Positions 1 to 32,602 of a DNA stretch of 64,000 nt are shown here, one piece after another. The translations under genes were made by a program, and so were the position numbers. The stretch is from an uncultured Candidatus Saccharibacteria bacterium (lineage in GTDB: Bacteria > Patescibacteriota > Minisyncoccia > Phycocordibacterales > JAKAEA01): the NCBI GenBank assembly GCA_964532205.1, contig CAZHGQ010000001.1:49962-113961 (forward strand), in the 5' to 3' direction. Every line of letters starts with the position of its first letter. Position 1 is the stretch's first letter. The notes under the pieces were generated by a model. It had not been told where the DNA came from. It did not search any database and was given only the letters and a program-made list of their open reading frames with translations.

Positions 1-207
1 TTAAAGATTTTGGAAGATCATGGCGTGAAGGAAGTAAATCCAATTGGTCAAAAGTTTGACCCAATGCGTGACGAAGCCATTGAACATGTAGTTGTAACAG
101 ATGAGGCCCAGGATCATATCATTACCGATGTTGTTCAGAAGGGTTATACATTAAACGGTAAGAGTCTTAAAGCGCCTCGCGTCAAAGTTGGTGAATTCAA
201 GAAATAA
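1..207 (+). CDS. grpE: GrpE nucleotide exchange factor, C-terminal fragment (5' end outside window)
   Basis: Open frame from base 1 translates LKILEDHGVKEVNPIGQKFDPMRDEAIEHV..., a typical GrpE C-terminal domain; sits directly upstream of dnaK-dnaJ. Confidence 0.75.
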   Translation, partial: LKILEDHGVKEVNPIGQKFDPMRDEAIEHVVVTDEAQDHIITDVVQKGYTLNGKSLKAPRVKVGEFKK

Positions 208-225
208 TTTGGTATACTAGTAGAA

Positions 226-540
226 ATGTTTGAACTTCAAACAAAACGAAATATCCGTTGCTTTACTGTTGAACGCGCCACGGTTCGACTGGTTTTTGCC
301 GCACTTGTTGAGGTTCAAAATGGGGTAGAGGTTTTGGTTTCAGAACCAAAGCTTATCAAAGTGTTGCCAAAGGCTACTGCTACTTTACCGGCTGGTAAAA
401 AGCCTATCTTGGCTTTGCCAGGCATCGAAACACAGGTGGCCCACACGACTCCGGCTTACGTTTCACCCTTTGTCTCACTTCTTTTTGGTAATTCAGAACT
501 TGTTATAAACTTAGCACCCCAACCACCAACTCGAAACTAA
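226..540 (+). CDS. hypothetical ORF in grpE-dnaK gap (doubtful)
   Basis: 104-aa ORF with no recognisable motifs and a P-rich low-complexity end; may be spurious. Confidence 0.2.
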   Translation: MFELQTKRNIRCFTVERATVRLVFAALVEVQNGVEVLVSEPKLIKVLPKATATLPAGKKPILALPGIETQVAHTTPAYVSPFVSLLFGNSELVINLAPQPPTRN

Positions 541-575
541 TTTTGATTGTTTATTAATCTTAATTAGTTTTAACT

Positions 576-2447
<1,872 letters not shown>

Positions 2448-2454
2448 AGCAAAA

Positions 2455-2497
2455 GGCGGCCGAGCTGTGCTCGGCCGCCGACGCTTTGCGTCTTTCA
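2455..2497 (+). terminator. hairpin terminator after dnaK
   Basis: GGCGGCCGAGC-tgt-GCTCGGCCGCC perfect 11-bp stem 8 nt after the dnaK TAA, followed by a second small hairpin and a T-rich stretch. Confidence 0.5.
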
Positions 2498-2681
2498 AAA
2501 ACCATATCGGAGGAAGTACGCTAAACAAACCATGGAAATCAAAAGGACGGTTACCTTGAACGCATCGTACCACGTCATATCCTCCGTTACGGATTTCTGA
2601 GACTCGTAGTACCGTTCATCATTCTCTGTCATAAAACCACCCTTCTGTCAATATAGTACCATATCTTAGAAATTAATCAAA

Positions 2682-3755
2682 ATGGCTAAAAATTATTACG
2701 AAACCCTGGGAGTCGAGAAAAATGCCTCAAAAGAGGACATAAAAAAGGCCTTTCGCAAAATGGCTCATCAGTATCACCCTGACAAACAAGGTGGTAACGC
2801 TGAGAAATTTAAAGAAGTAAATGAGGCTTATTCGGTGTTGTCTGATGATCAAAAACGAGACCAATACGATCGTTATGGCAAAACCTTTAGCGATATGGGT
2901 GGTGGCGCTGGCTTCAATCCAAATGACTTTGGTTTTGATTTCTCTGGCATGGGTGGCAGTCAATTTCAGGATTTTGATATCGGTGATATTTTTGGTCAAT
3001 TTTTCGGTGGCGGCCGTGGTGGCCGACGCGAGAAACGTGGTTCTGATATTCAGGTTGATGTCGAAGTTGCTTTTGCCGAAGCGGTTTTTGGTGTCGACAA
3101 GGTTGTTAACATCAACAAAACATCTGTTTGTGAAGTTTGTCAGGGTTCGGGTGCAGAACCCAATACTGAGGTTAAAACCTGTGATACCTGTAAAGGTAAG
3201 GGTCAGATCAATGAAACACGCCAGTCAATTTTTGGGGCTATGGCTAGTGTGCGTGAGTGTCCAACCTGTCATGGTAAGGGCAAGATGCCGACGGTGAAGT
3301 GTAAAAACTGTCGCGGTGCTGGCATTTACAAAAAGCAAACTGAGATTAAGTTTGCCGTACCGGCCGGCATCAATAACGGTGAGATGTTGCGAGTCGTTGG
3401 TTCAGGTGAAGCTATTGAAGGCGGTACGACCGGCGATCTTTATATCCGTATCCATGTGCGCCGACATCCGACATTAACTAAGGAAGGCAACAACCTGTTT
3501 ATGGAACGCACCATTAAACTTACAACTGCACTTTCAGGCGGTGAAGAAGAAATTGAAACACTTGATGGCCCGCTGACTTTGAAAATCCCAGCCGGCATCG
3601 CTTTTGGTGAACTACTTCGGGTAAAGGGTAAGGGTGTACCGACAAGTAAGAGCTCGAGAGGTGATTTATTGGTCAAAATCCACATTCAGATTCCAGCTAA
3701 ACTCTCCAAAAAAGCCGCTAAGTTAGTGGATGAATTGAAAGGCGAGGGGGTTTAA
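2682..3755 (+). CDS. dnaJ: molecular chaperone DnaJ
   Basis: J domain with HPD (YHPDK), G/F-rich linker, four CxxCxGxG zinc-finger repeats. Confidence 0.95.
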
Positions 3756-4008
3756 TCACACTAGTTTACATTGTTAAAAACTTATAAACAGGCTACAATA
3801 GAAGTGTAGTCTGTTATGATACATCGACAAAATATTGTAAATACTTGCCATGTTTTGTTATGTATGTTATATTATATGCAATGCAGAACGCAGTAATTAT
3901 TAGATTAAATGATAGTCCACTTGCCCCTCTGAGTGTAGGGGGTGCAGTTTACAATTTCATGGTTTAGATATTGGCGCCGTCTTAGGGCGTCATTTTTTTA
4001 GAAAGAAA

Positions 4009-5559
4009 ATGTCACGTTCAACACTAAATATTCCGGAATCGTACAAGCGCGAAATTAAAATGCGCAAGGAGGTTGCCGAAAAGCAATTAAATTTTATTTA
4101 CGACAAAAAAAGCGACTTCTGGAAAAAAGAACAGGAGCGTCGAATGCTCGATTTGTTTCATACATCTGCAAAAAAAGTTGCTGCCTATAAGGATTTTATA
4201 AAAAAAGCCCGCGTTCATCCTGAGAAAATCCAGTCAATTGAAGATTTTCAGAAAGTTCTACCTGTAAACAAAGATAATTACCTCAGAAGTTATCCTTGGG
4301 AGAAACTTTGTATGCCAGGTTCATTGATTGAGCAATCACTTGTTCTCACTTCAACCTCAGGTTCAACCGGTCGACCATTCTATTTCCCTCGAAATGGTAT
4401 CCTTGATGCTCAATCATCGATTTACCACCAGATGTTCATACGTAATAGCAATCTTGATGTAAATAAATCAACGTTAGTGCTTGTCTGTTTCGGTATGGGT
4501 GTCTGGATCGGTGGCGTGATTACGTATCAGGCTTTCAAAACTATTTCTGAGCGTGGTTATCCATTAACTATTCTGACTCCAGGTGTAAATAAGCGTGAAA
4601 TTTACGAAGCGCTCAAGAATGTTGGTCCACAATATGACCAGATTATTATGTGTGGCTATCCACCATTCATGAAGGATGTTGTTGATGAGGCTAAAGAGAA
4701 TGGTGTAAATTGGAGCGATTTCAATATCCGGATGATTTTCGCTGCTGAATCGTTCTCTGAAAAATTCCGCGACTATATTATGAAGAAAACTGGCATGAAA
4801 AACCCATATCAGGACACGATGAACATTTACGGTAGTGCTGACTTGGGAACGATGGCTGAGGAAACGCCCGTTGCAATCTTAATCCGTCGACTGGCGCTTA
4901 AGCATAAACGAATTTATACAAAGTTATTCGGTCAGGCCACCCGCTTGCCAACATTTGCTCAGTACATTCCAATGTTCATAAACTTTGAGTGTACAAACAA
5001 TCGCGTGTACTGTACTGGTGATAATGTGTTACCACTCGTGCGTTATGAAATCGGTGACAATGGTGGCACCTGGTACTTTAAAGATGTTGAAAAGATCTTC
5101 GAGGAAGAGGGAATTAATCTTCGTGATGAAGCAAAAAATGTTGGCATAGATCATACAATTGCTGAACTACCATTTGTCTACGTCTACGAACGAACAGATC
5201 TCTCGACAAAACTTTACGGTGCTATTATTTATCCTGAGTACGTCAAGGTTGCTTTGCAAGAACATGCTATTGAAAAATACATTACTGGTAAATTTACAAT
5301 GTACACTAAACATGACGAAAGACAGGACGAGTATCTGGAAATTAACGTTGAGTTAAAGCCAGGTATTATTGAGTCATCATGGTTAAAGGAAGAAGTTACG
5401 AAATTAATTTCAGGTTCACTCTCACATCACAGCGCTGAACACAAGAACAATGTTCACATGCTCAATGGCAAAGTCACACCACGCATTGTGTTCTGGCCTC
5501 ATGAGCACCCAACACACTTCCAAACTGGTATTAAGCAAAAGTGGGTGAAGTCAGTTTAA
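4009..5559 (+). CDS. adenylate-forming enzyme, PaaK / coenzyme F390 synthetase / CapK-like (ANL superfamily)
   Basis: 516 aa. N-terminal-third motif LTSTSGSTGRPFYFP resembles the SSGTTGKP phosphate-binding loop of phenylacetate-CoA ligase family proteins. Exact substrate unknown. Confidence 0.55.
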   Translation: MSRSTLNIPESYKREIKMRKEVAEKQLNFIYDKKSDFWKKEQERRMLDLFHTSAKKVAAYKDFIKKARVHPEKIQSIEDFQKVLPVNKDNYLRSYPWEKLCMPGSLIEQSLVLTSTSGSTGRPFYFPRNGILDAQSSIYHQMFIRNSNLDVNKSTLVLVCFGMGVWIGGVITYQAFKTISERGYPLTILTPGVNKREIYEALKNVGPQYDQIIMCGYPPFMKDVVDEAKENGVNWSDFNIRMIFAAESFSEKFRDYIMKKTGMKNPYQDTMNIYGSADLGTMAEETPVAILIRRLALKHKRIYTKLFGQATRLPTFAQYIPMFINFECTNNRVYCTGDNVLPLVRYEIGDNGGTWYFKDVEKIFEEEGINLRDEAKNVGIDHTIAELPFVYVYERTDLSTKLYGAIIYPEYVKVALQEHAIEKYITGKFTMYTKHDERQDEYLEINVELKPGIIESSWLKEEVTKLISGSLSHHSAEHKNNVHMLNGKVTPRIVFWPHEHPTHFQTGIKQKWVKSV

Positions 5560-5580
5560 TTATTGTAATAAATTAAAAAT

Positions 5581-6762
5581 ATGTCTGATATACAAAAGCA
5601 ACTAGATGGTAAAAAAGACAATAAACATTTAAAACCCGAATTTTTTAATTTATCCAAACCGGCTGATGCTAAAAAAGTTGAAGAACTTCTGGCAAATGGC
5701 AAAATCCAGTACACGATTGACGACTACGAAGAACTCAACCTAGAGCTTTTCGGTGTAAAAAACCCCTCAAAGGTTTACACTCCCACATTTAAACAAGAAT
5801 TTAAGGATTATTACGAAAGCCTACAAAAAGAGAAGCCACTTCACGAACATGGTGTTTGGGTGTACTATCCTTGGTCTTCAAAATTAGTCCATATTCTTGA
5901 GGAATCAGACTATTTCCTTGTCCGAACTGCCCGAAATAAAAATCTTATCAACGCTCAAGAACAAGAGGCTTTCTACAATGCTAAAGTCGGTATCGGTGGT
6001 CTAAGTGTTGGTTCAAGTGTGGCCTTTGCACTTGTGTTGCAAGGTGGCCCAAAGCGCATCAAGCTCGCCGACATGGATAGATTAGCGCTTTCAAACACAA
6101 ACAGAATTCTATCAGGTGTTGAAAATCTTGGTGTGCTTAAGGTTGAAATGGCTGCCAGAAAAATTTATGAAATAAATCCTTACGCTGAAGTTGAGCTTTT
6201 CCCGGAAGGTTTAAATAAAAATAATATTGAAGTATTTTGTAAGGACCTTGATGTGGTTATCGATGAACTCGACAACTTAGCTGTTAAGTTTTTGATCCGT
6301 GAACAGGCCAAAAAGCATAAGTTGCCTGTTGTGATGGCTGCGGATAACGGTGACAACGCTGTTGTGGATGTGGAGCGATATGATCTTGATCCAAACCTGC
6401 CCTTTTTCCAGGGTAGAATGGGCGATGTAAGCTATGAAATGCTTTCAACACTTGATAAATTTGGTATTGGCAAGATGATTACCAAACATGTTGGCGCAGA
6501 AAATGTCACAGAGCGAATGCAACAGTCTCTTTTGGAAATGGGTAAGACCATTGTTTCGTGGCCTCAGCTAGGAGGCGCAGCGCTAATAAACGGTGCGGCG
6601 GTGGCCTATTGTGTTCGAAAAATACTGAATAAACAGTCTCTTGAGAAAGACCGATCTCTTATTAACATGGATAGCTTGCTTGATCCGCACTACAATACAC
6701 CAGAGCAGGTGGCTCACCGAGAGAAAATTGCTTCCGACTTTAAGAAGATTTTTGGGCTTTAG
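5581..6762 (+). CDS. ThiF/MoeB/E1-like adenylyltransferase family protein with N- and C-terminal extensions
   Basis: Rossmann motif VGIGGLSVGS followed by ADMDRLALSNTNR (matches the ThiF D-x-D-x-x-x-x-SNLNRQ signature). 393 aa, longer than ThiF/MoeB. Confidence 0.7.
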   Translation: MSDIQKQLDGKKDNKHLKPEFFNLSKPADAKKVEELLANGKIQYTIDDYEELNLELFGVKNPSKVYTPTFKQEFKDYYESLQKEKPLHEHGVWVYYPWSSKLVHILEESDYFLVRTARNKNLINAQEQEAFYNAKVGIGGLSVGSSVAFALVLQGGPKRIKLADMDRLALSNTNRILSGVENLGVLKVEMAARKIYEINPYAEVELFPEGLNKNNIEVFCKDLDVVIDELDNLAVKFLIREQAKKHKLPVVMAADNGDNAVVDVERYDLDPNLPFFQGRMGDVSYEMLSTLDKFGIGKMITKHVGAENVTERMQQSLLEMGKTIVSWPQLGGAALINGAAVAYCVRKILNKQSLEKDRSLINMDSLLDPHYNTPEQVAHREKIASDFKKIFGL

Positions 6763-7420
6763 GAGGGGATTTGGTCTTGTCTTGACTTGCTAAGTCAAAC
6801 AGTGCCTTTACTATTGAGGCAATTTCTTGATTTTCAATCATAATTCCAAATTTTTTATTCTGTGAAGAAATTGAAACTCTGTTTAGATATATATTTAGAT
6901 CATAATCGTCCTTAGTGTCTTCCTTTAAGTTTTCAATCCCCTTAACTTGAATTCCATTAGTTGTTTTTTTGGCTCTAACATGTGACATCCTACGTAGAAT
7001 ATCACCAGCCTCATTGTTAATTAAACTTGGAAATATGTTTTTAACCCCCTCCTCACCATCAAATAGAGTAATTCTTGGTCTGTGAGTATCTGAGCTTAAT
7101 TTGATTAAATCTGGAACCAACTTCTCGATATCTGAATGAATATTTTTTTGTTTCTGTTCGAGTTTTGAGACCATGATTAATAGATCCTCAGGGCTAAGCG
7201 GGCTATATTTCTTTATCTTTTTACCTCTTCCACCTTCATTTTTTTCTTTAATTAGACCTTTATTTATTAGTGATTCAGCGACATTGTATAGTGTTGTACG
7301 GTTAATTTTTGAAAGCATAGAGATGTCCTGAATACTTAAGGTTCCATTTTCAAGCAATACCAAGTACATTTTTGCCTCAGATTCACTCAAATCTAATTTT
7401 TTAAGAATTTCCTCAAACAT
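6740..7420 (-). CDS. TrmB-family HTH transcriptional regulator
   Basis: N-terminal wHTH resembling TrmB (LSESEAKMYLVLLENGTLSIQDISMLSKINRTTLYNVAESLINKGLI). Confidence 0.6.
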   Translation of the reverse strand: MFEEILKKLDLSESEAKMYLVLLENGTLSIQDISMLSKINRTTLYNVAESLINKGLIKEKNEGGRGKKIKKYSPLSPEDLLIMVSKLEQKQKNIHSDIEKLVPDLIKLSSDTHRPRITLFDGEEGVKNIFPSLINNEAGDILRRMSHVRAKKTTNGIQVKGIENLKEDTKDDYDLNIYLNRVSISSQNKKFGIMIENQEIASIVKALFDLASQDKTKSPPKAQKSS

Positions 7421-8193
7421 TATTGCTTCTTAGTTTGTAATTTTTCTGCTGTTATATATGCTTGATCAAAAAGTTTTCTAAACATCTCCGATATTTCATT
7501 GCTCTCAATAATGATGGCGAACATCTCTTTTGTCGACATTAAGCCAACCTTATTATCATAGATGGCAACGTCAGCTGGTAACTTGAGGCTTTCAGTTGGT
7601 ACTAATACAATATCGTCAAAATTAATATTTGGATGATGTCGCATCATTTCAATCGCAGCATAATCCAGTGGATGAATTCCTCTCATTTTGATATTTCTAG
7701 AAAATCTCTTAGATACGTACTCAGGCAAATACCCTGGTAATGTCTGAAAAATATCACCTACCGAAGAAGATATTCGAACAAGTGTATTTTTAGACTTTAA
7801 AGTATCCTCAAAGGCTTCAATTAAGCCGTCCCTTCCCTCAAGTAACCGTACCTTCGGTTTATGTTTTGATGTTGAGTACAAGGTACTTAGCTCAACGATT
7901 GATCTTTCTAATGAGTTTCTAACAGAACTATATTTCTCAATCATTTTTTTTGAATGATTAACAAGGACCTCGGGTGAAACAGCGGTGTATCTTTTGATTC
8001 CTGTTGCTGAAGTTATGTTCACCAAACCTTTTTTAATTAACGAATCAAGTACAACATATATGGTAGTTCTGTTAAATCCAGTCTTGAGAGAAAGGTTCCT
8101 AACAATAGTTTGACCAGATTTAAGTAGCTCGAGATATAAGCGAGCTTCATTTGAAGAAAGACCGAATTTTAATAAAATCTCTTCAGGAAGCAT
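7420..8193 (-). CDS. TrmB-family HTH transcriptional regulator (tandem paralog)
   Basis: N-terminal wHTH LSSNEARLYLELLKSGQTIVRNLSLKTGFNRTTIYVVLDSLIKKGLV, same architecture as the downstream gene. Confidence 0.6.
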   Translation of the reverse strand: MLPEEILLKFGLSSNEARLYLELLKSGQTIVRNLSLKTGFNRTTIYVVLDSLIKKGLVNITSATGIKRYTAVSPEVLVNHSKKMIEKYSSVRNSLERSIVELSTLYSTSKHKPKVRLLEGRDGLIEAFEDTLKSKNTLVRISSSVGDIFQTLPGYLPEYVSKRFSRNIKMRGIHPLDYAAIEMMRHHPNINFDDIVLVPTESLKLPADVAIYDNKVGLMSTKEMFAIIIESNEISEMFRKLFDQAYITAEKLQTKKQ

Positions 8194-8270
8194 TTGTTGT
8201 CAGAGTATAACATCAAAACTAAATTTTATCAACTATAACGCTAACTTTAGAATACTGTTATAATCACTTT

Positions 8271-9293
8271 ATGAAATCAAACTATTCCGCATGGAAGATA
8301 GACCATAAAGAGTTCGAAAAACAAAATACGGGTATTGAAAGGCTACGATTTTTAATTAGGTACGCTGTATTAGCGCCCTCAAGTCATAATACTCAGCCTT
8401 GGTATTTTAAAATATCCCAAAATCGAATATCAGTTTTTAAGGATAAAAGTAAATTGTTACCAATTGCAGATACAAATGACAGACAGTCAACAATTAGCAT
8501 TGGTTGTGCAATTCAAAATATTTTAACTGCTGCGCACTGCTATGGTTTTAATACGAGACTTGATTTTATAGAAAAGGAGCATTCTGATTCGTTGGTAGAC
8601 ATTATTTTTGAAGAATTTGAAATAGAACGTCCACATAATTACGAGGTACTAAGGTTAATTTCTCAGCGCAGAAGTAATCGCGGTAAACACACTACCGATG
8701 TGATTCCTCAATCTATTTTAAATGAAATTAAACAAATCACCTTTGAGGACGTAAAGCTTTTTATTATTGATAAACAAGAAATGGTAAATGAGCTAGGTGA
8801 AATTGCTGTTGCAGCATCAATCGAATCCATGGTCAGTGATGAATTTAGAGCAGAATTATCACACCATGTAAAACATAACTTTACTAAGTCTAAGGTTGGT
8901 ATGCCTGGTTTTAGTCAGGGAATACCTGCCCCCATATCTTTTATTCTGCCGGGTTTGTTAAAACGCTTTAATATGGAAAAAGTTGCTGAAAAACAAAATA
9001 TTAATCTATTTCAGAAGTGGACAAAGTACCTACTTATTATTGCCTCAAAAAATGACACCGAGAAAGACTGGATTAATGTAGGAAGATTGTACGAGTTAAT
9101 ATCGTTTATTTGTACTAAACATACAATAGCATTGGCACCGTGGGGTGCACCGATTCAAATTGGCTTACACTTCACAGCAATACAAAAAGTTATAAATACT
9201 GATTATCGACCTCAAATGTTTGTTAGAATGGGTATTACAAAGCATAAGGCAAGATTTTCACCAAGGGTTCCATTTAATGAGGTAATAAAATAA
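8271..9293 (+). CDS. two-domain nitroreductase-family (FMN-binding, Acg/SagB-like fold) protein
   Basis: N-terminal LRFLIRYAVLAPSSHNTQPWYF is the nitroreductase-fold signature. 340 aa suggests the duplicated-domain type. TGTTATAAT -10 lies only 7 nt before the ATG (leaderless-like). Confidence 0.6.
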   Translation: MKSNYSAWKIDHKEFEKQNTGIERLRFLIRYAVLAPSSHNTQPWYFKISQNRISVFKDKSKLLPIADTNDRQSTISIGCAIQNILTAAHCYGFNTRLDFIEKEHSDSLVDIIFEEFEIERPHNYEVLRLISQRRSNRGKHTTDVIPQSILNEIKQITFEDVKLFIIDKQEMVNELGEIAVAASIESMVSDEFRAELSHHVKHNFTKSKVGMPGFSQGIPAPISFILPGLLKRFNMEKVAEKQNINLFQKWTKYLLIIASKNDTEKDWINVGRLYELISFICTKHTIALAPWGAPIQIGLHFTAIQKVINTDYRPQMFVRMGITKHKARFSPRVPFNEVIK

Positions 9294-9298
9294 ATAAA

Positions 9299-10885
9299 AT
9301 GTCCGGATTTTTAAATATTGACCTGTTAAGCGTTGGTGTTGCGATTGCAGGAAATTTGTTAATTGGATTTGCAGCACTATTTTCAAATAAGAGGAATGCG
9401 ACAAATATATTATTTTTGCTTCAAACACTAATTCTTTCTTTGTGGAGTTTGGCTAATTATATTTCATATCAACCACACGACCCAACACTTGCATTATTTC
9501 TTGTAAGAATAGTTCTTTTCTTGGCTGTGCCAAATTCAATTATCTTCCTTATATTCATGCATACGTTTCCGTCGGAAAGTTTAAAAATGAGTAAGAGGAC
9601 ACTAATCGCTTTGATAATTGTATCTATCGTAACTATGGGGATCACCCTTTCACCATTTCTATTTCAAAAAGTTGTAATTAATAATACTGGTGCGCCCACT
9701 CCAGTACCGGGTGTAGGAATCATACCTTTCTTTGTAGTAAGTATTATTTCCTTACCACTTGGCTTTTATTACTTAGTAAAAAATTATTTTTTTGCAAAAG
9801 CAGACGAGAAAAAGCAATTTGCTTTTTTGCTGTTAGGTGTTGTGATCACTTTTACGACAATAATGACTTTTAATTTTATTTTCCCTAGTTTTCTCAAGAA
9901 TTCACGCTTTATTCCTCTGAGTGCCGTTTTTACCTTACCGTTTGTAATCTTTACTGCATACGCAATATATAAATATAAGCTATTTAAAATCAAGGACATC
10001 TTCACCGTCTTCATTGCGCTGGCATTGACGGTTGTAACATTCGTCGAAATTATCTTCTCCGTAGGTCTTCCTCAGGTTATTTTCCGAGTCAGCATCTTCA
10101 CAATCGTTCTGATCTTCAGCATTCGTATGATCCGTGACATGTTTGCGCTTGAATTCGCCAACGAGCGGCTCAAGGAACTCGACAAAATGAAGTCCGAGTT
10201 CGTCTCGCTGGCCACCCACCAAATCCGCGCGCCATTGACCGCTATTAAAGGCTACATTTCGCTCATTCAGGAAGGGGACTACGGCCAAGTACCAGCACCA
10301 ATTGCCGGCGCCATCGACATTATCATGCAGTCGACAAATAACCTGGTTACTATTGTTGGCGATTTCCTCGATGTCTCACGTATTGAACTCGGCCGCATGA
10401 AGTATGACTATTCTGATTTTGACTTCCAGGAGCTCGTGCAGCAAGTTGTGACTGAATACAAGCCAAATGTCGAGAAGAAAGGTCTCAATTTCAGCTACAG
10501 TTTTGATCAAAGCAAGCAGTACATGGTCCACGCTGATCGCGGCAAGATCAAGCAGGTTATTGGTAACATTATCGACAACTCTATCAAGTACACGTTGCAA
10601 GGATTCGTTAAAGTTGAACTCGGCTTTTCAAAAACAAGTCCGAATAGCGTTTTGGTCAAGGTTTATGACAGCGGTGTTGGTATTCCGGCAGCCACAATTC
10701 CAAAACTCTTCCAAAAATTTACTCGTGCGGAAAATGCCAACGATGCCAATATTCTCGGTACTGGCCTAGGTCTTTATGTGGCTAAACAAATGATTGATGC
10801 TCATCAGGGCAAACTCTGGGCTGAATCTGAGGGACAGGGTAAGGGGGCGCAGTTCTATATTGAGTTGCCGGTTAAGGGTGTGTAG
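9299..10885 (+). CDS. membrane sensor histidine kinase (no adjacent response regulator)
   Basis: About 7 N-terminal TM helices, HisKA H-box SEFVSLATHQIRAPL, HATPase_c G-boxes GVGIP and GTGLGLYVAKQMI. Confidence 0.85.
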   Translation: MSGFLNIDLLSVGVAIAGNLLIGFAALFSNKRNATNILFLLQTLILSLWSLANYISYQPHDPTLALFLVRIVLFLAVPNSIIFLIFMHTFPSESLKMSKRTLIALIIVSIVTMGITLSPFLFQKVVINNTGAPTPVPGVGIIPFFVVSIISLPLGFYYLVKNYFFAKADEKKQFAFLLLGVVITFTTIMTFNFIFPSFLKNSRFIPLSAVFTLPFVIFTAYAIYKYKLFKIKDIFTVFIALALTVVTFVEIIFSVGLPQVIFRVSIFTIVLIFSIRMIRDMFALEFANERLKELDKMKSEFVSLATHQIRAPLTAIKGYISLIQEGDYGQVPAPIAGAIDIIMQSTNNLVTIVGDFLDVSRIELGRMKYDYSDFDFQELVQQVVTEYKPNVEKKGLNFSYSFDQSKQYMVHADRGKIKQVIGNIIDNSIKYTLQGFVKVELGFSKTSPNSVLVKVYDSGVGIPAATIPKLFQKFTRAENANDANILGTGLGLYVAKQMIDAHQGKLWAESEGQGKGAQFYIELPVKGV

Positions 10886-11201
10886 ATTCCTGTAAGTAAT
10901 CAATCACTCCTTGGCGGATATACCAGGTAAAATAGGTACCAAAATAAAATAAGTCTTGTCTTCGTTCCATCATGTCATGAGCATGTCGAATATAATTCCG
11001 ACTGGCTTGCGGAAAGTATTTCCAGCCAGCCGACATTAACGCCTCGATATATTTGGTTTTAATGAAATGCTTTTTTGCATATTGGCGTACAACATTTTTA
11101 ATGAGACCACTAAAATATCGTCGACATTCCAGCTCATTAATTTCGTTTAATTGTGCGTTTTCTATAAGCTCTAATTCTTTTTGAAATCGTTTATCAAACA
11201 T
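10872..11201 (-). CDS. hypothetical protein
   Basis: 109-aa ORF overlapping the kinase stop by 14 nt; no recognisable motif. Confidence 0.35.
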   Translation of the reverse strand: MFDKRFQKELELIENAQLNEINELECRRYFSGLIKNVVRQYAKKHFIKTKYIEALMSAGWKYFPQASRNYIRHAHDMMERRQDLFYFGTYFTWYIRQGVIDYLQESTHP

Positions 11202-11248
11202 TGGATGTATTTTATAAAAACCGATGGAGTTTATCCATCGGTTGCAGT

Positions 11249-11425
11249 TTATTTGTCCTTACTGCCTGGACTTGGCAAATCTTTTGCCCATTCAGGTGCA
11301 TCACGTGGCACTGGATCCTTTCCGGTTTCAGCTTTTTCAATAGCGTGATCGATCATTGCTTCACGCTCAGCACTATTTGTTGCTGGATTACCTTCATGAG
11401 ATCCACCTTTATCAGACGGACACAT
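11249..11425 (-). CDS. small hypothetical protein (58 aa), below the ORF-track size cutoff
   Basis: Minus-strand ORF MCPSDKGGSHEGNPATNSAEREAMIDHAIEKAETGKDPVPRDAPEWAKDLPSPGSKDK preceded by a strong SD (AAAGGAG, 7 nt before ATG). The overlapping plus-strand 87-aa ORF is W/C/F-rich and looks spurious. Confidence 0.4.
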   Translation of the reverse strand: MCPSDKGGSHEGNPATNSAEREAMIDHAIEKAETGKDPVPRDAPEWAKDLPSPGSKDK

Positions 11426-11761
11426 GTAATACTCCTTTCTGAAGTTGTTTGGAACCTCTTATGAAGCTCATCTTACTTCTGACTTAATAATCTTAAATTT
11501 AAATTTGATGTAAATTTGCGACAGGTAATATCTAACATATTAACTAAATGTCAAAAAGTAATTATTGTGCTGACACTAAAAAATACTAAGACAAAAGAGG
11601 TTTTTTGATATTTGTCGTAGATATTAGACACAGAAATAAATTTATTTTATTATCTCTGTAATTCTGATTTAAGTTATTGACAGTAGATATTAAACTCTGG
11701 CTGTAACTTGACAAAAGCATAAATCCATTTAGTATTGTAATCAGTTTTTCTTGGAGGAAAT

Positions 11762-12805
11762 ATGGGTTCTTTTGAAACGTCTGCGCGTCAGCATAATGTA
11801 GCCTGGCTTACCCTGAATCGATCGTGCAACTTTCGTTGTCCGTGGTGCTATGCTCAAGGTACTGGTTTTGATCCAAAAAAGAGTCTGACCTACGACTTTG
11901 CTGTCATACTACTCAACATCATTACCGCTCTGCGCGTTAAGCTGATCATTTTGATCGGCGGTGAGCCAACGTTGTGGCCAGATTTGATTTTGTTCAATCG
12001 ACTGCTTAAGACTAAAGACATTCAAAGTGTCATTGTGACCAATGCGTACCGTTTTGGTAACAATACGTTTTGGACGGCCTACAACGAAGTTCCAAATGAC
12101 GGGGTCAATATATCACTCAAAGCCTGGGATGCCGCAAGTATGAAGTCGATCATTGGTAATGCCGACTTTGAAATACTCAAACGCGGCATTAGCCGAGGAC
12201 TCGAGTATTCCGGCGGCTCACTAAGCTTTGTAGTTTCAGAACAGTGTCTAGATCATCTTGTAGAAATGGCAGGGCTGGCAAAAAGCCTAGGCGCTCAGCG
12301 CTTAAATTTAACGATGTGTGAGCCATATATCGTTAATGGTGAGACTGAGGCTCAGGGTCTGGTTTCCACACAACGACTCAATGAGCGCTTTGTTCCTGCA
12401 TTCGCCCATGTACGCAAGCTTATGCATGAAAATGTCTCAGTCTCACTAAAAACACCCCTGTGCTTGTGGCCGAGAGACTTTCTGCAGGGTCTGATTGATC
12501 GCAAACAGCTTGTCACCGGCTGTCAGCTTCAACATCGCTCTGGTCTAATCTTTGATTACGACGGCGCTGTCTCAGTTTGCAATGGCCTCACCGACTATCC
12601 AGTCGCTAGGTACGAAACAGACTACCAGTCAGCCCCAGAACTTCAACGTAAACTTGAGTCTGAAGAAGTGGTACAATTGTACGATACAATGACGTCATAT
12701 CCGAGTACGCGTTGTAACGGATGCCCAATGTGGGAGAACTGTGGTGGTGGCTGCCCACTGTTCTGGACGTTGTATAAGCCAGAAGAGGTCATCCCTGGTT
12801 GGTGA
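11762..12805 (+). CDS. radical SAM / SPASM-domain peptide-modifying enzyme (anSME-like maturase)
   Basis: CNFRCPWCY = CxxxCxxC radical SAM cluster at residues 22-29. C-terminal CNGCPMWENCGGGCPLF = CX2CX5CX3C SPASM signature. GGAGGA SD precedes the ATG. Confidence 0.85.
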   Translation: MGSFETSARQHNVAWLTLNRSCNFRCPWCYAQGTGFDPKKSLTYDFAVILLNIITALRVKLIILIGGEPTLWPDLILFNRLLKTKDIQSVIVTNAYRFGNNTFWTAYNEVPNDGVNISLKAWDAASMKSIIGNADFEILKRGISRGLEYSGGSLSFVVSEQCLDHLVEMAGLAKSLGAQRLNLTMCEPYIVNGETEAQGLVSTQRLNERFVPAFAHVRKLMHENVSVSLKTPLCLWPRDFLQGLIDRKQLVTGCQLQHRSGLIFDYDGAVSVCNGLTDYPVARYETDYQSAPELQRKLESEEVVQLYDTMTSYPSTRCNGCPMWENCGGGCPLFWTLYKPEEVIPGW

Positions 12806-12822
12806 CCAGAAAGTGAGATGTC

Positions 12823-12993
12823 GTGAAAGGCATCAAACAACTTCTTAGAGTAACCGGACAGAAGGCGCCCCCAATCAAGGGGTTCCGGTCACAACCGCCA
12901 TCAACCAAAGCAGCAGGCTCAAAACAGCTGAACCTGGTTGACGGCAAGTGCCAGTGCGCTGACTGCGACTGCATCGACGAATGTCGAGATTAG
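12823..12993 (+). CDS. candidate RiPP precursor peptide, Cys-rich C-terminus (56 aa, GTG start uncertain)
   Basis: Only long frame between the rSAM stop and the downstream terminator: VKGIKQLLRVTGQKAPPIKGFRSQPPSTKAAGSKQLNLVDGKCQCADCDCIDECRD. Five Cys in the last 14 residues. Followed by its own terminator. Not in the ORF track (under 60 aa). Confidence 0.45.
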   Translation: MKGIKQLLRVTGQKAPPIKGFRSQPPSTKAAGSKQLNLVDGKCQCADCDCIDECRD

Positions 12994-12999
12994 TCGTCA

Positions 13000-13040
13000 A
13001 GCCCTGATTGTAGTATAATCACTGCAATTAGGGCTTTTTC
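13000..13040 (+). terminator. rho-independent terminator after the Cys-rich peptide ORF
   Basis: AGCCCTGATTG-N14-CAATTAGGGCT (10/11 bp stem) followed by TTTTT. A TATAAT inside the loop may also serve the next gene. Confidence 0.5.
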
Positions 13041-13042
13041 AT

Positions 13043-13651
13043 ATGAAATTCAACTACCACTTCTCAGAAGAGTTGGAACAAGAGCGAGTCGAGTATACCC
13101 GTAGCAAGCTTGATTTTTATACTCAAAATGGCTACCCAGTACACCTGCCACAAACCACGATTGAAGCTGAGTGGTCTGTTGATATATATGAACAGGCCAT
13201 AGCAACTATTTCAACCATCATTGATTCATACAGTCATACATTCCATGCCGGTGCCTTGGCAGCGCACCTTACTCTGTCAGATGAATACAATATTCAACTC
13301 ACACGCTACGGTGTGGGAGGGAGTTACAATCAGCCAAATACGGTTATCATCAATATTTTAAAAAAATCAGGCGAAACCAAAGGCCCACAATCACTTATAG
13401 AAAGTATTTTTCATGAAATAACTCATCTCATCATTGAGATGCAAATTCAAAAATATAATATTTCACACTGGGATAAAGAAATCATTGTTAATCTATTACT
13501 AGCAAAATTGATTCCTGAATTTGCACCTCGTATTGAGCAGAATAAATCTTCCGCTAAAGAACAGATCTGTAATCTTTTTGAAACGTTATATCCGGATGTG
13601 GAGGGGATTATCGCTGGGGTCGGGGAGGGGTATAGAGAAAAGATAAGTTGA
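13043..13651 (+). CDS. hypothetical protein with HExxH motif (possible zinc metallopeptidase)
   Basis: 202 aa with FHEITHLIIEM (HExxH); no other recognisable domain. Confidence 0.45.
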   Translation: MKFNYHFSEELEQERVEYTRSKLDFYTQNGYPVHLPQTTIEAEWSVDIYEQAIATISTIIDSYSHTFHAGALAAHLTLSDEYNIQLTRYGVGGSYNQPNTVIINILKKSGETKGPQSLIESIFHEITHLIIEMQIQKYNISHWDKEIIVNLLLAKLIPEFAPRIEQNKSSAKEQICNLFETLYPDVEGIIAGVGEGYREKIS

Positions 13652-13736
13652 CAAACCCATAAAAATAAGTTACATTAAAACCAGAAAGCCCTATTGTGTT
13701 GTAGGGTCAAGTCTCTTCTAAAAAAGGAGGTGGGGC

Positions 13737-14438
13737 ATGAATCCCACACGCATACGTTTGGTTTTGGCTCTGGTATTTGTGTTATGTACCAAAGCCTCGT
13801 ACGGTGGATCGTTCAGCATCCATACGTTTACCACAGAATCGGGCACGGGCCTGGATTCGCGCTTGTCATACACTCACTTGGTGGACACCACCATTGAGGA
13901 AATGACACCAGACAAGCTGGCGACCATCAATGGCGTGCATTTTACCCAGGGCCTTGAGCGCTGCGGTACGAATTACACAGTCAGTGGTCAGGCTGGCGGC
14001 ACGTACAACGCTTACGATGTCAACACTGGCATCTACAAGCTTCTGTACGACTACCTGTTCGATGATGAGAGTCCAACACTGCTCATCAATCTGACGGGTT
14101 TGACGCCCGGCACGGCGTACGACCTGCGCTTGTATAACGGCGGCATCTACCCGTACATCCACAAGAAGTACAAGGTAGAAGTCACTAATGGTGGTATGAC
14201 CGACAGCCTGATCGACTACGATCAATTGGCCTACGGCATGCACTATCTGCAGTACGAGTACACGGCCGAATCTAGCGCATTGGCTATTTCCATTACGCGG
14301 ACTGAGAATGCCAATGCCACTGAGATCAAGTACATGCTGGCCGGTTTCACCAATTCGGTGGTACCAGCGGCGGTTCCGGAGCCAAGCTGTTTGATGTGCG
14401 GCATCGTGATCATGACGATCATGGGTCGAAAACGCTGA
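13737..14438 (+). CDS. secreted protein with C-terminal PEP-CTERM-type sorting signal
   Basis: N-terminal signal peptide MNPTRIRLVLALVFVLCTKASYGG. C-terminus AVPEPSCLMCGIVIMTIMGRKR-stop has a VPEP motif, hydrophobic helix and basic RKR tail. Strong SD AAAAAGGAGGTG. Clearly higher GC than its neighbours. Confidence 0.65.
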   Translation: MNPTRIRLVLALVFVLCTKASYGGSFSIHTFTTESGTGLDSRLSYTHLVDTTIEEMTPDKLATINGVHFTQGLERCGTNYTVSGQAGGTYNAYDVNTGIYKLLYDYLFDDESPTLLINLTGLTPGTAYDLRLYNGGIYPYIHKKYKVEVTNGGMTDSLIDYDQLAYGMHYLQYEYTAESSALAISITRTENANATEIKYMLAGFTNSVVPAAVPEPSCLMCGIVIMTIMGRKR

Positions 14439-29962: not shown

Positions 29963-30538
29963 ATGGTTTCGCTCTACAAAGATAAAATCAAACGCTTCTA
30001 CGACCGTAACCGCATCATGCCCACATACCGGGATATGATGGAAATGTTCGGTCTTAAGTCCAAGAACGCCGTCTTTAAGCTGGTTAATAAGCTCGTGGGC
30101 GAGGGTTATATCGAAAAGGATATAAACGGCCGTTTGGTGCCAACAGATAAGTTCTTGGGCGGTTTAAAGGTTCTCGGTGCTGTTGAAGCCGGTTTCCCAA
30201 CACCGGCTGAAGAAGACTTGGCTGAGAGCATGAGTTTGGACAATTATCTTATTCCAAACAAAGAGGCAACCTTCATGCTCCGAGTCAGCGGCGAATCAAT
30301 GATTGATGCTGGTATCCACCCAGGCGACATGCTGATTGTTGAGCGCCGCACCGATGCCAATGATGGTGACATCGTTGTAGCTTTCACTGATGGTGGTTAC
30401 ACAGTGAAATTTTTACGTAAACGGGCTGGTCGAGTCTGGCTTGAAGCGGCCAACAATGAATTCAGAGACATTGTACCCGCAGACGAGCAAGAGTTACGTA
30501 TTATGGCAGTCGTTAAAGCAGTTATTAGAAAATATTAA
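29963..30538 (+). CDS. lexA: LexA repressor (S24 peptidase)
   Basis: N-terminal wHTH and C-terminal S24 domain with GESM (Ser nucleophile) and the VKFL lysine. Confidence 0.9.
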   Translation: MVSLYKDKIKRFYDRNRIMPTYRDMMEMFGLKSKNAVFKLVNKLVGEGYIEKDINGRLVPTDKFLGGLKVLGAVEAGFPTPAEEDLAESMSLDNYLIPNKEATFMLRVSGESMIDAGIHPGDMLIVERRTDANDGDIVVAFTDGGYTVKFLRKRAGRVWLEAANNEFRDIVPADEQELRIMAVVKAVIRKY

Positions 30539-30547
30539 TCATACACT

Positions 30548-30748
30548 ATGAGCAAATCACAACTTAAATACACTCTTAAGCAGGAATTGCGAAAAGTAAA
30601 TGAGGTTATCGACAAGAAAATTGTGCGCGGTCTTCCATACAATAAAGAGGCCCGCTACCACAAGGTCTTGTTGGCTCGATTATCAGTTATCAATCGCAGC
30701 AGTTTCTTATCACGCATGAAGATGGTCTCAGCCTTTATGGTGTTTTAA
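30548..30748 (+). CDS. small hypothetical protein in the lexA operon
   Basis: 66-aa basic ORF packed between lexA and the DUF45 gene. Confidence 0.35.
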   Translation: MSKSQLKYTLKQELRKVNEVIDKKIVRGLPYNKEARYHKVLLARLSVINRSSFLSRMKMVSAFMVF

Positions 30749-31308
30749 TGACAATGTTGAGCTATAACGATATCCATTATCTTATACGCCGCAGTCATCG
30801 AGCTCGTCGAGCCAGCATTACCGTACACCACACAAAAGGCGTAATCATTACCTTGCCTTTATTGGCGCCGTCATTTGTAGCTGACCGTATTATTTCTCAA
30901 CGCTTACCATGGATCGTCGCTACCCAAAAAAGACTAGAGTCTCGTTTCAGGAACCGAATTATCATCAAGCAGTCGCAACGGGAGTATCAATTAATAAAAT
31001 ACAAAACTCTGTTACTCGTTTTACGACGCCTTGATTATTACAATACCTATTACAAATTACCAATCAGCAATGTCCGTGTTAAAAATTTACAATCACGATG
31101 GGGGAGTTGCTCATCAAAAGCCAACCTCAATTTTAACTACTCTTTGATCCATTTACCTGAACGATTGGTTGATTATGTGGTCGTCCACGAACTCTGTCAT
31201 ATTAAGGAACTCAATCACGGATCACAATTTTGGAATTTGGTGGCCCAAACCATTCCAGATTACCAATTTCGTCGTCAGGAGCTCAAAGAGAAATATTTGC
31301 CGCTGTAA
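30748..31308 (+). CDS. YgjP/DUF45-family metal-dependent hydrolase (HExxH)
   Basis: WGSCSSKANLNFN and VVHELCHIKELNHG motifs typical of DUF45/YgjP. Confidence 0.7.
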   Translation: MTMLSYNDIHYLIRRSHRARRASITVHHTKGVIITLPLLAPSFVADRIISQRLPWIVATQKRLESRFRNRIIIKQSQREYQLIKYKTLLLVLRRLDYYNTYYKLPISNVRVKNLQSRWGSCSSKANLNFNYSLIHLPERLVDYVVVHELCHIKELNHGSQFWNLVAQTIPDYQFRRQELKEKYLPL

Positions 31309-31309
31309 T

Positions 31310-32602
31310 ATGCCGCCATTTTCTCACTACTCATCATTTCCTAAAGCTATTGTTCACGTCGACGGTGATGCCTTTTTTGCCAGCTGCGAAATCGCTCAAA
31401 ATGAATCCCTGCGTGGTAAGCCTGTTGTCACCGGCACTCAAAAAGGTATTGCTACTGCCATTACATACGAGGCTCGAGCTTTGGGCATTTCGCGTGGCAT
31501 GCGGATTTCAGAAATTAAAAAACTCTATCCGCAGGTTATTGTCACTGAATCAAACTATGATCTGTACGGCATAACTGCCCGTCGTGTTTACAACATTGTG
31601 CGCCGCTACACACCAGATGTTGAAGAATACAGTGTCGACGAGTGTTTTGCTGATATCACTGGCATGCGCCACAGCCTGCACATGTCATATCAAGATATCG
31701 CAGCTGCTATTAAACACGATTTAGAAGCTGATTTGGGTATGACATTTTCTGTGGGTTTGGCCCCAACCAAAGTCCTGGCCAAAGTTGCCTCAAAGTGGCA
31801 AAAGCCAGCCGGTTTTACTGTAATTCCGACCAAAAAAATTGCTGAATTTCTTAAACCCATTCCAATAGGGAAGATCTGGGGGATTGGACCTAATACTTCG
31901 GCTTTTTTGCAAAAACATGGCATTACTACTGCCCTACAATTTGCTGAAAAACCGGAATGGTGGGTGAATGAGCATTTGTCTAAGCCCCATAAAGAAATCT
32001 GGCACGAATTACGCGGTGAGCAGGTTATGGATGTGCATGTTTTTAATACCCACAAACACAAATCGATCATGCGCACTCGCACATTTCGACCACCGACGAA
32101 TGATCGTACCTTTTTATTGTCCGAATTAGCTAAAAATGTTGAACAGGCTTGCGAACGACTACGCCGCTATGGTTTGGTAGCTCGTGAAGCTCGAGTTTTT
32201 CTTAAAACTCAGAAAGAATTCCGTTATAAAAATATGGAACTCATATTTGATCAAGCTCTTAACACACCACAATCAATCATGGCACTAATTGAGCAACATA
32301 TATCCAAGATTTATTCATCAGACATAATATATCGCTCATCAGGCATTGTCTTTCACAGTATTACACCGCTCAATGTCGAACAACAAAGCCTGTTTATCAC
32401 GCCACAAACATCAAATATCGGTTCACTCAAAGCAATCTACGAAACAGTTGATGACGTGAACCGTCGCCAAGGTAGTATTGCCGTCTTTTCAGCTCGTAGT
32501 TTGCAGTCTCGCGCCCATCGACGTAGTCAAATTACTTCACCAGACCCCATAATCGCTTTAGCTGAGCGGTTGGGCATACCATATTGGGGCGAAGCTCGAT
32601 AA
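31310..32602 (+). CDS. dinB: Y-family DNA polymerase IV
   Basis: IVHVDGDAFFASCE catalytic motif and SVDECFAD. ATG 31310 sits 1 nt after the DUF45 stop and is in frame with the track ORF. Confidence 0.85.
   Translation: MPPFSHYSSFPKAIVHVDGDAFFASCEIAQNESLRGKPVVTGTQKGIATAITYEARALGISRGMRISEIKKLYPQVIVTESNYDLYGITARRVYNIVRRYTPDVEEYSVDECFADITGMRHSLHMSYQDIAAAIKHDLEADLGMTFSVGLAPTKVLAKVASKWQKPAGFTVIPTKKIAEFLKPIPIGKIWGIGPNTSAFLQKHGITTALQFAEKPEWWVNEHLSKPHKEIWHELRGEQVMDVHVFNTHKHKSIMRTRTFRPPTNDRTFLLSELAKNVEQACERLRRYGLVAREARVFLKTQKEFRYKNMELIFDQALNTPQSIMALIEQHISKIYSSDIIYRSSGIVFHSITPLNVEQQSLFITPQTSNIGSLKAIYETVDDVNRRQGSIAVFSARSLQSRAHRRSQITSPDPIIALAERLGIPYWGEAR

Follow-up and report, generated by a model that had tools for sequence, protein, structure and literature searches.

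Judging from its sequence, a Patescibacteria locus encodes a split oxazolone-synthetase-like pair, composed of a ThiF/E1-like enzyme (B) and a nitroreductase-fold flavin oxidase (C). We assign the pair because C matches the half of the Rv1355c family model that B leaves uncovered. Together with a PaaK-fold ligase (A) and a seven-transmembrane (7TM) sensor histidine kinase, B and C may form a single Patescibacteria cassette that makes an amino-acid-derived heterocycle by oxazolone-synthetase-type chemistry, a reading to which we give about an even chance. We base it on homology and synteny, on natural gene fusions and on catalytic motifs that are intact, and from these we infer what reaction A performs, which substrates and product are involved and what the kinase does.

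Architecture of the locus

The 64-kb window, i.e. the whole stretch of DNA analysed, contains the following features in this region.

3845..3873, + strand: candidate promoter-like site upstream of A (TTGCCA-17-TATATT plus TG extension, 10/12 consensus matches)
3972-3992: terminator-like hairpin after the promoter-like site and 5' of A, a possible leader on weak evidence
4009..5559, + strand: A, PaaK-fold adenylate-forming (ANL) enzyme, 516 aa, from predicted fold and ANL motifs
5581..6762, + strand: B, stand-alone ThiF/E1-like ATP-dependent enzyme of the TrzS (Rv1355c) clade, 393 aa
6740..7420, - strand: TrmB-family regulator 1, 226 aa (Pfam TrmB, E 6e-16)
7420..8193, - strand: TrmB-family regulator 2, 257 aa (Pfam TrmB, E 8e-16)
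8271..9293, + strand: C, nitroreductase-fold protein, proposed desaturase partner of B (Acg-family and Rv1355c model matches)
9299..10885, + strand: 7TM sensor histidine kinase, 528 aa (Pfam HisKA_7TM, HisKA, HATPase_c)

An earlier note on this DNA had described A and B as adenylating enzymes in tandem, separated by 21 nt, which we confirm. Its proposal of a small-molecule tailoring cassette is likewise supported, with the nitroreductase-fold protein as the functional partner; the unit was, however, drawn too short and missed the 7TM kinase, which starts 5 nt past the end of C. The region upstream of A matched no Rfam family, and its sequence was not conserved among the five related spacers compared.

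In the window, B and C lie 1.5 kb apart with the two TrmB genes between them. TrmB regulator 1 is convergent with B, their 3' ends overlapping by 23 nt, and shares 30% identity with TrmB regulator 2. The latter is divergent from C across a 77-nt spacer, in which a consensus scan found promoter-like sites on both strands of 8197-8261. From this arrangement alone, TrmB regulator 2 probably controls C and the kinase locally. Only 8 of 80 related loci have TrmB genes in the neighbourhood of the cassette; the pair is an uncommon, lineage-specific insertion outside the cassette core.

B is related to the cyclase half of TrzS

B matched the Rv1355c family model (NF005901) with 340 bits (E 2.4e-101), the alignment spanning positions 5-349 of the 722-position model. 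This match covers the full length of B and corresponds to the ThiF half of the model, including the extra N-terminal domain (residues 1-105 of B). B falls short of the full-length cut-off of 476 bits, a point against the cassette reading; as it corresponds to one half of the model, it could not reach that value. A fused Patescibacteria relative with 51% identity to B (P0243) reached 485 bits. Other models of the ThiF-nitroreductase type were far more distant (PRK14851, 78 bits; PRK14852, 45 bits). Rv1355c is TrzS, a ThiF-cyclase/flavin-oxidase fusion shown biochemically to cyclise N-acyl-Trp with ATP and to desaturate it with O2 and FMN (PMC12856293). The adenylation site of B is intact (P-loop, ribose Asp, Arg and Lys, DxxD), and its motifs align with those of TcdA. 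No variation was seen among 27 stand-alone and fused relatives at residues G140, S142, G144, D166, N172, N174, R175, K187, E229 and D231. We propose that B is a cyclodehydratase.

Public annotations instead call B a 'molybdopterin/thiamine biosynthesis adenylyltransferase' or a 'tRNA threonylcarbamoyladenosine dehydratase', and A a 'phenylacetate-CoA ligase'. Taken at face value, these labels would make A and B chance neighbours with housekeeping roles, one in aromatic catabolism and the other of the TcdA/MoeB/ThiF type, an alternative that the earlier note had itself raised. B does resemble these enzymes in its E1-like Rossmann core and in its motifs for ATP binding; TcdA is its best PDB sequence match (E 4e-11), and cyclodehydration of an N-acylated amino acid moiety is TcdA's own reaction. 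However, B scored 52-69 bits with ThiF, MoeB and TcdA models that have cut-offs of 152-376 (by family: ThiF, 69 bits with cut-offs of 159-275; TcdA, 52.5 with 304; MoeB, 54-69 with 266-449), and A likewise fell far short of the PaaK models (TIGR02155, 49.6 bits with a cut-off of 646.3; NF041878, 47 with 700). Unlike TcdA, MoeB and ThiF, B has an extra N-terminal domain, lacks a carrier protein and is obligately paired with A and the flavin oxidase (FDO). Moreover, A and B are adjacent in nearly all related loci and fused in one protein (P0362), paa genes are absent from the window and from the neighbour families of related loci, and neither ThiS nor MoaD is encoded nearby. Family scores, synteny and the A::B fusion effectively refute the housekeeping pair, which we regard as extremely improbable. 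B does not belong to the thiamin, molybdopterin or tRNA (ct6A) enzymes, as had already been argued for the first two pathways, and the public labels of both families are widespread misannotations.

The nearest known systems had previously been sought among MccB-like enzymes and TOMM pathways. On such a reading, B would adenylate the C-terminus of a ribosomal peptide in an MccB/PaaA-like or TOMM-like manner. The oxazolone synthetases are closer to both B and C, and the comparison with TOMM E1-like/dehydrogenase pairs holds as a mechanistic analogy (cyclodehydration plus FMN-dependent dehydrogenation) but not as the closest system. Positions 1-14000 of the window contain no GG-terminated ORF of 30-130 aa. 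The search for such ORFs at orthologous loci, which had been suggested as a check, returned six across 80 loci, all unrelated and none conserved. No conserved small ORF or precursor peptide was found at the cassette loci, where genes lie about 5-20 nt apart, and B appears to have no YcaO partner. Peptide or protein tailoring appears very unlikely.

C matches the flavin-oxidase half of the same model

C matched positions 365-554 of the Rv1355c model, i.e. its FDO half, with an E-value of 8e-20. It also matched the Acg family (NF047509) with an E-value of 2.5e-56 and 191.5 bits, just under the cut-off of 199, and the Acg structure 2ymv with 3.8e-9. The FDOs of the cassette fall into a major group (n=57) and a minority group (n=11) that includes C of the window. 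Its position below the Acg cut-off and within the minority group are points against the cassette reading. We considered whether C might be an unrelated Acg-like paralog and rejected this, as the two groups are mutually exclusive at each locus and fill the same slot.

Like TrzS, the pair combines a ThiF-cyclase half (B) and an FDO half (C) with conserved ATP-site residues. Unlike TrzS, which is one fused protein, B and C are separate genes in the window, with fused forms in other Patescibacteria. Separate proteins are also found in the tyrazolone pathway TyzA/TyzB/TyzC (Rv2336-2338c), where TyzB and TyzC are not fused (PMC10404671). The logic of this pathway and of OxzA/OxzB from Pseudoalteromonas rubra (de Rond et al., bioRxiv 10.1101/2020.06.11.147165) resembles the one proposed here: a ThiF-like enzyme uses ATP to cyclise an N-acyl aromatic amino acid, and an FMN oxidase introduces the desaturation. 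Their acyl donor enzymes differ, having a GNAT/AHL-synthase-like fold where an ANL enzyme is found here. The N-acyl tryptazolone pathway of mycobacteria and Rhodococcus, TrzA/TrzS (Rv1356c/Rv1355c; Kleetz et al. 2025, PMC12856293), differs further: its acyl-CoA-dependent N-acyltransferase TrzA is absent and replaced by a PaaK-fold ligase, the operon here includes a 7TM histidine kinase, and the host is a Patescibacterium.

A is a PaaK-fold enzyme, a proposed ligase in the slot of an acyltransferase

Pfam returned no match for A, so that a fold prediction was needed, and sequence-profile matches to PaaK, F390-synthetase and FlxY were weak. The predicted structure (pLDDT 83.8) retrieved PaaK1 (2y27, E 2.8e-19) in a Foldseek search, along with BT_0428, NatL2 (E 4.5e-15) and ClxA (E 1e-14). 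Fold and motifs A3, A5, A7, A8 and the A10 Lys together place A in the PaaK fold, and the ANL core motifs TSGSTGxPFYFPR, YGSAD, RYEIGD, ER.D...K.YG and K509/K511 are invariant across 22 homologs. PaaK sequences in the PDB matched A with an E-value of only 3e-6. As the identity to PaaK is only ~15%, the substrate of A cannot be read from homology. The A family comprises more than 2,400 protein clusters, and at least 301 species-representative genomes encode a member; an exact search of the contig index with the A protein of the window gave no match.

We propose that A is an ATP-dependent ligase that would make an N-acyl amino acid. The slot of the usual N-acyltransferase is held by the PaaK-fold ligase; no acyltransferase, GNAT or other, was found among the window neighbours or anywhere in the 64-kb window. 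A precedent is offered by NatL2 and ClxA, PaaK-type benzoxazole ligases that transfer an acyl-adenylate directly onto an O or N nucleophile without CoA (PMC7204872, PMC12519233). They share the PaaK fold with A, and their products feed a heterocycle-forming step. They differ from A in sequence (14-15% identity) and in using aminohydroxybenzoates as substrates, and their ring-closing partner is an amidohydrolase rather than a ThiF-like enzyme. A point against the cassette reading is that exclusion of CoA by A is not visible in its sequence.

Alternatively, A could be an ordinary aryl- or acyl-CoA ligase of the PaaK/FlxY kind that feeds an unlinked N-acyltransferase, with B and C acting as an oxazolone synthetase as in the known systems. 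The nearest characterised relatives of A are indeed mostly CoA ligases (PaaK, BT_0428, HCL). At one locus (L084), moreover, a FlxA-like tyrosine-ammonia-lyase gene (603 bits, cut-off 700) lies directly 5' of the A homolog, mirroring the lyase-then-ligase order of FlxA/FlxY in flexirubin biosynthesis. Matches of the A family to FlxY are weak and N-terminal only (24-28 bits, cut-off 520); polyketide genes are missing here, and the window lacks the lyase. Against a CoA ligase speaks the absence of a conserved acyltransferase, both from the window and from the 30 commonest neighbour families at 80 loci, and the A::B fusion suggests that the product of A is handed directly to B. CoA and fatty-acid metabolism are, in addition, usually sparse in Patescibacteria. 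We consider the CoA-ligase alternative unlikely.

Gene order is conserved among Patescibacteria

To place the locus in context, we compared 80 related Patescibacteria loci, 51 of which extend at least 5 kb beyond A. The order A-B-C-7TM histidine kinase is conserved: B was present in 50 of these 51 loci, which answers the earlier suggestion to examine neighbourhood conservation. C was found in 47, the kinase in 43 and all three in 42, with median gaps of 12 nt (A-B), 8.5 nt (B-C) and 5.5 nt (C-kinase). Gaps of 0.6-1.2 kb between A and B at some loci were inspected for a hidden cassette member; the inserts proved mutually unrelated (SDR, BI-1-like, unknowns).

Natural fusions join neighbouring members. 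A and B are fused in P0362 (43% identity to A, E 9e-150), and B and C in P0243, P0249 and P0252, the last from Candidatus Doudnabacteria. Further fusions combine GNAT with ThiF (P0385) and ThiF with an aromatic lyase (P0278). The 7TM kinase also adjoins fused versions (L081, L082, L084, L087), and a receiver-only response regulator often accompanies it in cassette loci. At L085, a 7TM kinase and response regulators stand beside a ThiF-FDO fusion that likely lies outside Patescibacteria. A 259-aa protein following this fusion was considered as a TrzA-like acyltransferase; neither Pfam nor NCBIfam gave a match for it, and the 80 loci and the window contain no homolog.

Upstream of A, 35 of 71 loci carry a deaminating enzyme within 1.7 kb, namely an ELFV dehydrogenase in 25 (best match Trp dehydrogenase ScyB) and an aminotransferase in 10. 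None of the dehydrogenase, aminotransferase, response-regulator or methyltransferase neighbours has a homolog in the window. The missing upstream dehydrogenase or aminotransferase, the missing response regulator and the interruption by two TrmB genes are points against the cassette reading.

Accessory genes vary by locus, including methyltransferase-like genes in 10 loci and an SDR in L073. At L081, an alpha/beta hydrolase takes the place of C; therefore, the chemistry after B may vary. This variation, the existence of two FDO groups and the known mechanistic versatility of ThiF-like enzymes (review PMC12596934) would fit a different small molecule made by the same enzymes. B would then activate a carboxylate for a nucleophile other than the amide oxygen, giving a lactam, lactone, hydantoin or amidine, and C might be a reductase or an oxidase acting at another position. 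The closest solved structure to B, AclA (9egb), can be counted on the same side; no paper in the searched literature names it. On the other hand, the only members of B's clade characterised so far make oxazolones, and 47 of 51 loci retain the pairing of B with an FDO that defines oxazolone chemistry. A product of another class thus seems rather improbable.

A proposed route to an oxazolone

For the oxazolone-type cassette, we suggest the following route. A would adenylate a carboxylic acid that in many relatives probably comes from the gene just upstream. Where that gene encodes an aminotransferase or a dehydrogenase of the Leu/Phe/Trp type, the acid would be an arylpyruvate or another 2-oxo acid; where it encodes a tyrosine-ammonia-lyase-like enzyme, the acid would be of the coumarate type. 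A would then join the acid to an amino acid through the latter's amino group, so that an N-acyl amino acid arises with neither acyl-CoA nor a separate N-acyltransferase. Next, B would adenylate the carboxylate of this intermediate, and the amide oxygen would close the ring to an oxazol-5(4H)-one. C, as a putative FMN oxidase, would finally desaturate the C-alpha/C-beta bond, and the kinase may serve as product sensor or pathway controller. A must act before B because the oxazolone has no free carboxylate, an order that agrees with the gene order.

Implications for Patescibacteria

The ThiF-FDO synthetases and the oxazolone natural products they make came to light only between 2020 and 2025, and Patescibacteria, which have very few biosynthetic pathways, are regarded as making hardly any secondary metabolites. 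The literature we searched contained nothing on an association of PaaK/F390-synthetase, ThiF and nitroreductase proteins, nor on oxazolones in CPR bacteria. The cassette, shared by many Patescibacteria with tiny genomes, looks like a new version of the oxazolone pathway, in which an ATP-dependent ligase replaces the acyltransferase and a membrane sensor kinase is attached. If true, the pathway would gain a second possible entry, through a PaaK-fold ATP-dependent ligase instead of an acyl-CoA N-acyltransferase, and its range would extend to Patescibacteria. The physical link of the pathway with a 7TM sensor kinase would also provide a testable hypothesis on the role of oxazolones.

More tentatively, and with a clearly smaller chance of being right, the cassette might be a self-contained signalling module widespread in Patescibacteria. 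The ANL ligase, ThiF-like cyclase and flavin oxidase would build an oxazolone or related heterocycle independently of CoA, and the co-transcribed 7TM kinase would sense it, as an autoinducer-like or host-directed signal of these episymbionts. Should this hold, the kinase and response regulators at the L085 fusion, probably outside the phylum, would point to signalling as a general role of bacterial oxazolones.

A and B are real, conserved genes

The two open reading frames described in the earlier note, A (a PaaK-fold adenylate-forming (ANL) enzyme) and B (a ThiF/E1-like protein), were found in the window with the same coordinates, 21-nt gap and quoted motifs, and they are real, conserved genes. 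A collection of 5.8 billion proteins contained more than 2,400 homologs of A and more than 1,500 of B, with top non-self matches of 85% and 81% identity, respectively. Nearly all named matches came from Parcubacteria/Patescibacteria metagenome-assembled genomes (MAGs), which assigns the window to a Patescibacterium (CPR bacterium). The pair is arranged as follows:

5' flank: grpE-dnaK-dnaJ
4009-5559, + strand: A, 516 aa
5581-6762, + strand: B, 393 aa
3' flank, - strand: two TrmB regulators
8271-9293: C, nitroreductase-fold protein matching the Acg/Rv3131 family of flavin-dependent oxidases (FDO)
9299-10885, + strand: 7TM sensor histidine kinase (HK)
11762-12805: radical SAM/SPASM protein, 347 aa

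The 253-nt spacer between dnaJ and A (3756-4008) holds a promoter-like site (3845-3873), a GC hairpin (about 3921-3940) and a terminator-like hairpin plus T7 run (3972-3999) whose end lies ~10 nt 5' of the ATG of A. A hairpin with a T-run directly 5' of A is also present in the related loci L001 and L003. The spacer matched no Rfam family and its sequence is not conserved; the hairpin could be a dnaJ terminator or an attenuator-type leader.

Further downstream, the radical SAM/SPASM protein shows weak matches to sactipeptide, ranthipeptide and mycofactocin maturases. The AT-rich 560-nt spacer in front of it (11202-11761) contains small ORFs and several promoter-like sites. The protein might act as a RiPP maturase whose precursor is not annotated. 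Pfam found nothing in the two genes that follow, of 202 and 233 aa. The 233-aa protein (13737-14438) has an N-terminal signal-like segment; its C-terminus, '...VPEPSCLMCGIVIMTIMGRKR', resembles a PEP-CTERM sorting signal, with a PEP motif, a hydrophobic helix and a basic tail. An apparent SOS-type cassette occupies 29963-32602, where a Y-family polymerase with IMS domains lies near a LexA-like repressor (Peptidase_S24 and LexA DNA-binding domain).

B and C match the two halves of an oxazolone synthetase

Pfam recognizes a ThiF domain alone in B (residues 121-254). The whole protein, its N-terminal 'extension' included, aligns to the N-terminal half of the NCBIfam model NF005901 ('Rv1355c family protein'; E 2.4e-101, 340 bits, model positions 5-349 of 722). 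The NCBIfam models for ThiF, MoeB and TcdA gave just 52-69 bits, far under their cut-offs, in support of the earlier proposal that B does not belong to thiamin or molybdopterin biosynthesis. C matched the Acg/Rv3131 FDO family with an E-value of 2.5e-56 (191.5 bits, cut-off 199) and the C-terminal half of the Rv1355c model (positions 365-554) with 8e-20; its closest solved structure is Acg (2ymv). With B on the N-terminal and C on the C-terminal half of this model, the two proteins together correspond to a split TrzS/OxzB fusion.

Rv1355c (TrzS) converts N-acyl-tryptophan to N-acyl tryptazolone by ATP-dependent cyclisation followed by O2-dependent desaturation (PMC12856293). Pseudoalteromonas has a related oxazolone system, OxzA/OxzB, and M. 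tuberculosis another, TyzA/TyzB/TyzC, the latter with the ThiF and FDO parts as two distinct proteins (PMC10404671, bioRxiv 10.1101/2020.06.11.147165, review PMC12596934). B and C are thus separate like TyzB and TyzC, whereas TrzS and OxzB are each one fused protein. Alternatively, A, B and C might yield a heterocycle other than an oxazolone.

A has a PaaK fold

A Pfam search of A returned no match, and its similarity to PaaK is weak (2e-13, 49.6 bits against a cut-off of 646), as is that to F390 synthetase and FlxY. The predicted structure (pLDDT 83.8) matched PaaK1 best (E 3e-19), followed by BT_0428, NatL2, ClxA and 2-hydroxyisobutyryl-CoA ligase, and the ANL core motifs are unchanged across 22 homologs. 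The PaaK-type enzymes NatL2 and ClxA bypass CoA, joining the acyl-adenylate straight to an O or N nucleophile (PMC7204872, PMC12519233), so direct amide formation by this fold has precedent.

The cassette is conserved and its parts are naturally fused

The species-representative collection holds 301 stretches encoding an A relative. We sampled 80 such loci from species-representative genomes, 80/80 being Patescibacteria MAGs, and counted genes by iterative HMM searches in those 51 loci whose sequence continues for 5 kb or more beyond A. Conservation of the A-B neighbourhood, which the earlier note had proposed as a check, was clear: B follows A in 50/51 loci, C is found in 47/51, the kinase in 43/51 and all three in 42/51. 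A-B-C-HK is the most frequent order, with median gaps in related loci of 12 nt (A-B), 8.5 nt (B-C) and 5.5 nt (C-HK).

Directly 5' of A, a Glu/Leu/Phe/Val-type dehydrogenase recurs that best matches the tryptophan dehydrogenase ScyB; aminotransferases of class I/II or class IV also recur in this slot. Within 1.7 kb upstream of A, one or the other occurs in 35/71 loci (25 and 10, respectively). Furthermore, a receiver-only response regulator (RR) recurs, and a methyltransferase-like protein lies near the cassette in 10 loci.

Natural fusions link the cassette parts. P0362 is an A::B fusion (43% identity to A across 481 residues, E 9e-150), and P0243, P0249 and P0252 (from Candidatus Doudnabacteria) are B::C fusions. 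TrzS-type ThiF domains are also joined to an N-terminal GNAT (P0385, 775 aa) and to an aromatic amino-acid lyase/aminomutase (P0278, L087 153-2927, 924 aa). A Chloroflexota 'Rv1355c family protein' (P0304, 1061 aa) has ~290 additional unassigned C-terminal residues. Variant loci read:

L081: dehydrogenase, A::B, alpha/beta hydrolase, 7TM HK, RR
L082: RR, dehydrogenase, A, B::C, HK, RR
L084: FlxA-like tyrosine ammonia-lyase, A, B::C, methyltransferase, HK
L087: ThiF::lyase, A, FDO, 7TM HK

The L081 hydrolase (3767-4648, weakly HsaD/BphD-like) occupies the usual FDO slot ahead of the kinase and may reflect variant chemistry after the ThiF step. In L085 (5318-12277, contig JAUICR010000067.1), a 764-aa ThiF-FDO fusion, which reaches 695 bits against the Rv1355c model, has a response regulator on its flank; after the fusion come a 259-aa protein matching no family, a 7TMR-DISM histidine kinase and a hybrid RR/HK. 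A Por_Secre_tail gene on this contig makes an origin in Patescibacteria improbable, and the pairing of oxazolone-type enzymes with 7TM sensor kinases may thus reach beyond this group.

These data bear on three other readings. That A and B are unrelated housekeeping enzymes is ruled out by family scores, synteny and fusion. A could possibly be a plain CoA ligase supplying an unlinked acyltransferase, a reading weakened by the A::B fusion and because unbiased clustering of all neighbouring ORFs at the 80 loci revealed no acyltransferase family. Peptide tailoring, which the earlier note named beside small-molecule tailoring, lost ground, as neither a precursor ORF, a small GG-terminated ORF, YcaO nor a clamp-domain match was found.

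The window carries a minimal, slightly rearranged copy

The dehydrogenase, aminotransferase, response regulator and methyltransferase neighbours have no upstream copy anywhere in the 64-kb window. Between B and C lie the two TrmB genes, paralogs of 30% mutual identity; such genes are near the cassette in just 8/80 loci. The FDOs fall into a major group (57 members), which includes the FDO domains of the fusions, and a minority group of 11 that contains C. The groups are mutually exclusive per locus (major alone in 50, minority alone in 10), and other loci have the minority type immediately flanked by B and the kinase; we therefore treat C as a functional alternate. GC content is 0.33-0.37 across 6001-10000 (TrmB-TrmB-C-kinase) versus about 0.42-0.46 in the flanks, and the minority type accompanies TrmB in L003, L046 and L073. 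Together, these features would fit a candidate swapped-in module or horizontal replacement of the TrmB-C-HK segment.

Proposed mechanism

The sequence comparisons establish homology, unbroken catalytic motifs, close gene packing as in an operon, and fusions; from these we infer a route through ligase A, cyclase B and desaturase C, to which we give an even chance. A would adenylate an acid that probably arises from an amino acid through the upstream deaminating enzyme, where such a gene exists, and join it to an amino acid, giving an N-acyl amino acid. B would then adenylate the carboxylate of this product, the amide oxygen closing the oxazolone ring, and C would desaturate the oxazolone. As an oxazolone has no free carboxylate, A would have to act before B, which matches the order of the genes. 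The kinase may regulate the pathway or sense its product; De Rond et al. likened the lability of oxazolones to that of many signalling molecules (bioRxiv 10.1101/2020.06.11.147165).

Published genome-neighbourhood analyses of oxazolone synthetases describe acyltransferase partners only (PMC12856293, bioRxiv 10.1101/2020.06.11.147165), and in the literature searched we found neither a PaaK-like/ThiF/FDO cassette nor any account of oxazolone genes from CPR bacteria. What would be new is an oxazolone-synthetase-type pathway, widespread in Patescibacteria, in which an ANL ligase replaces the N-acyltransferase and which is coupled to a 7TM kinase.
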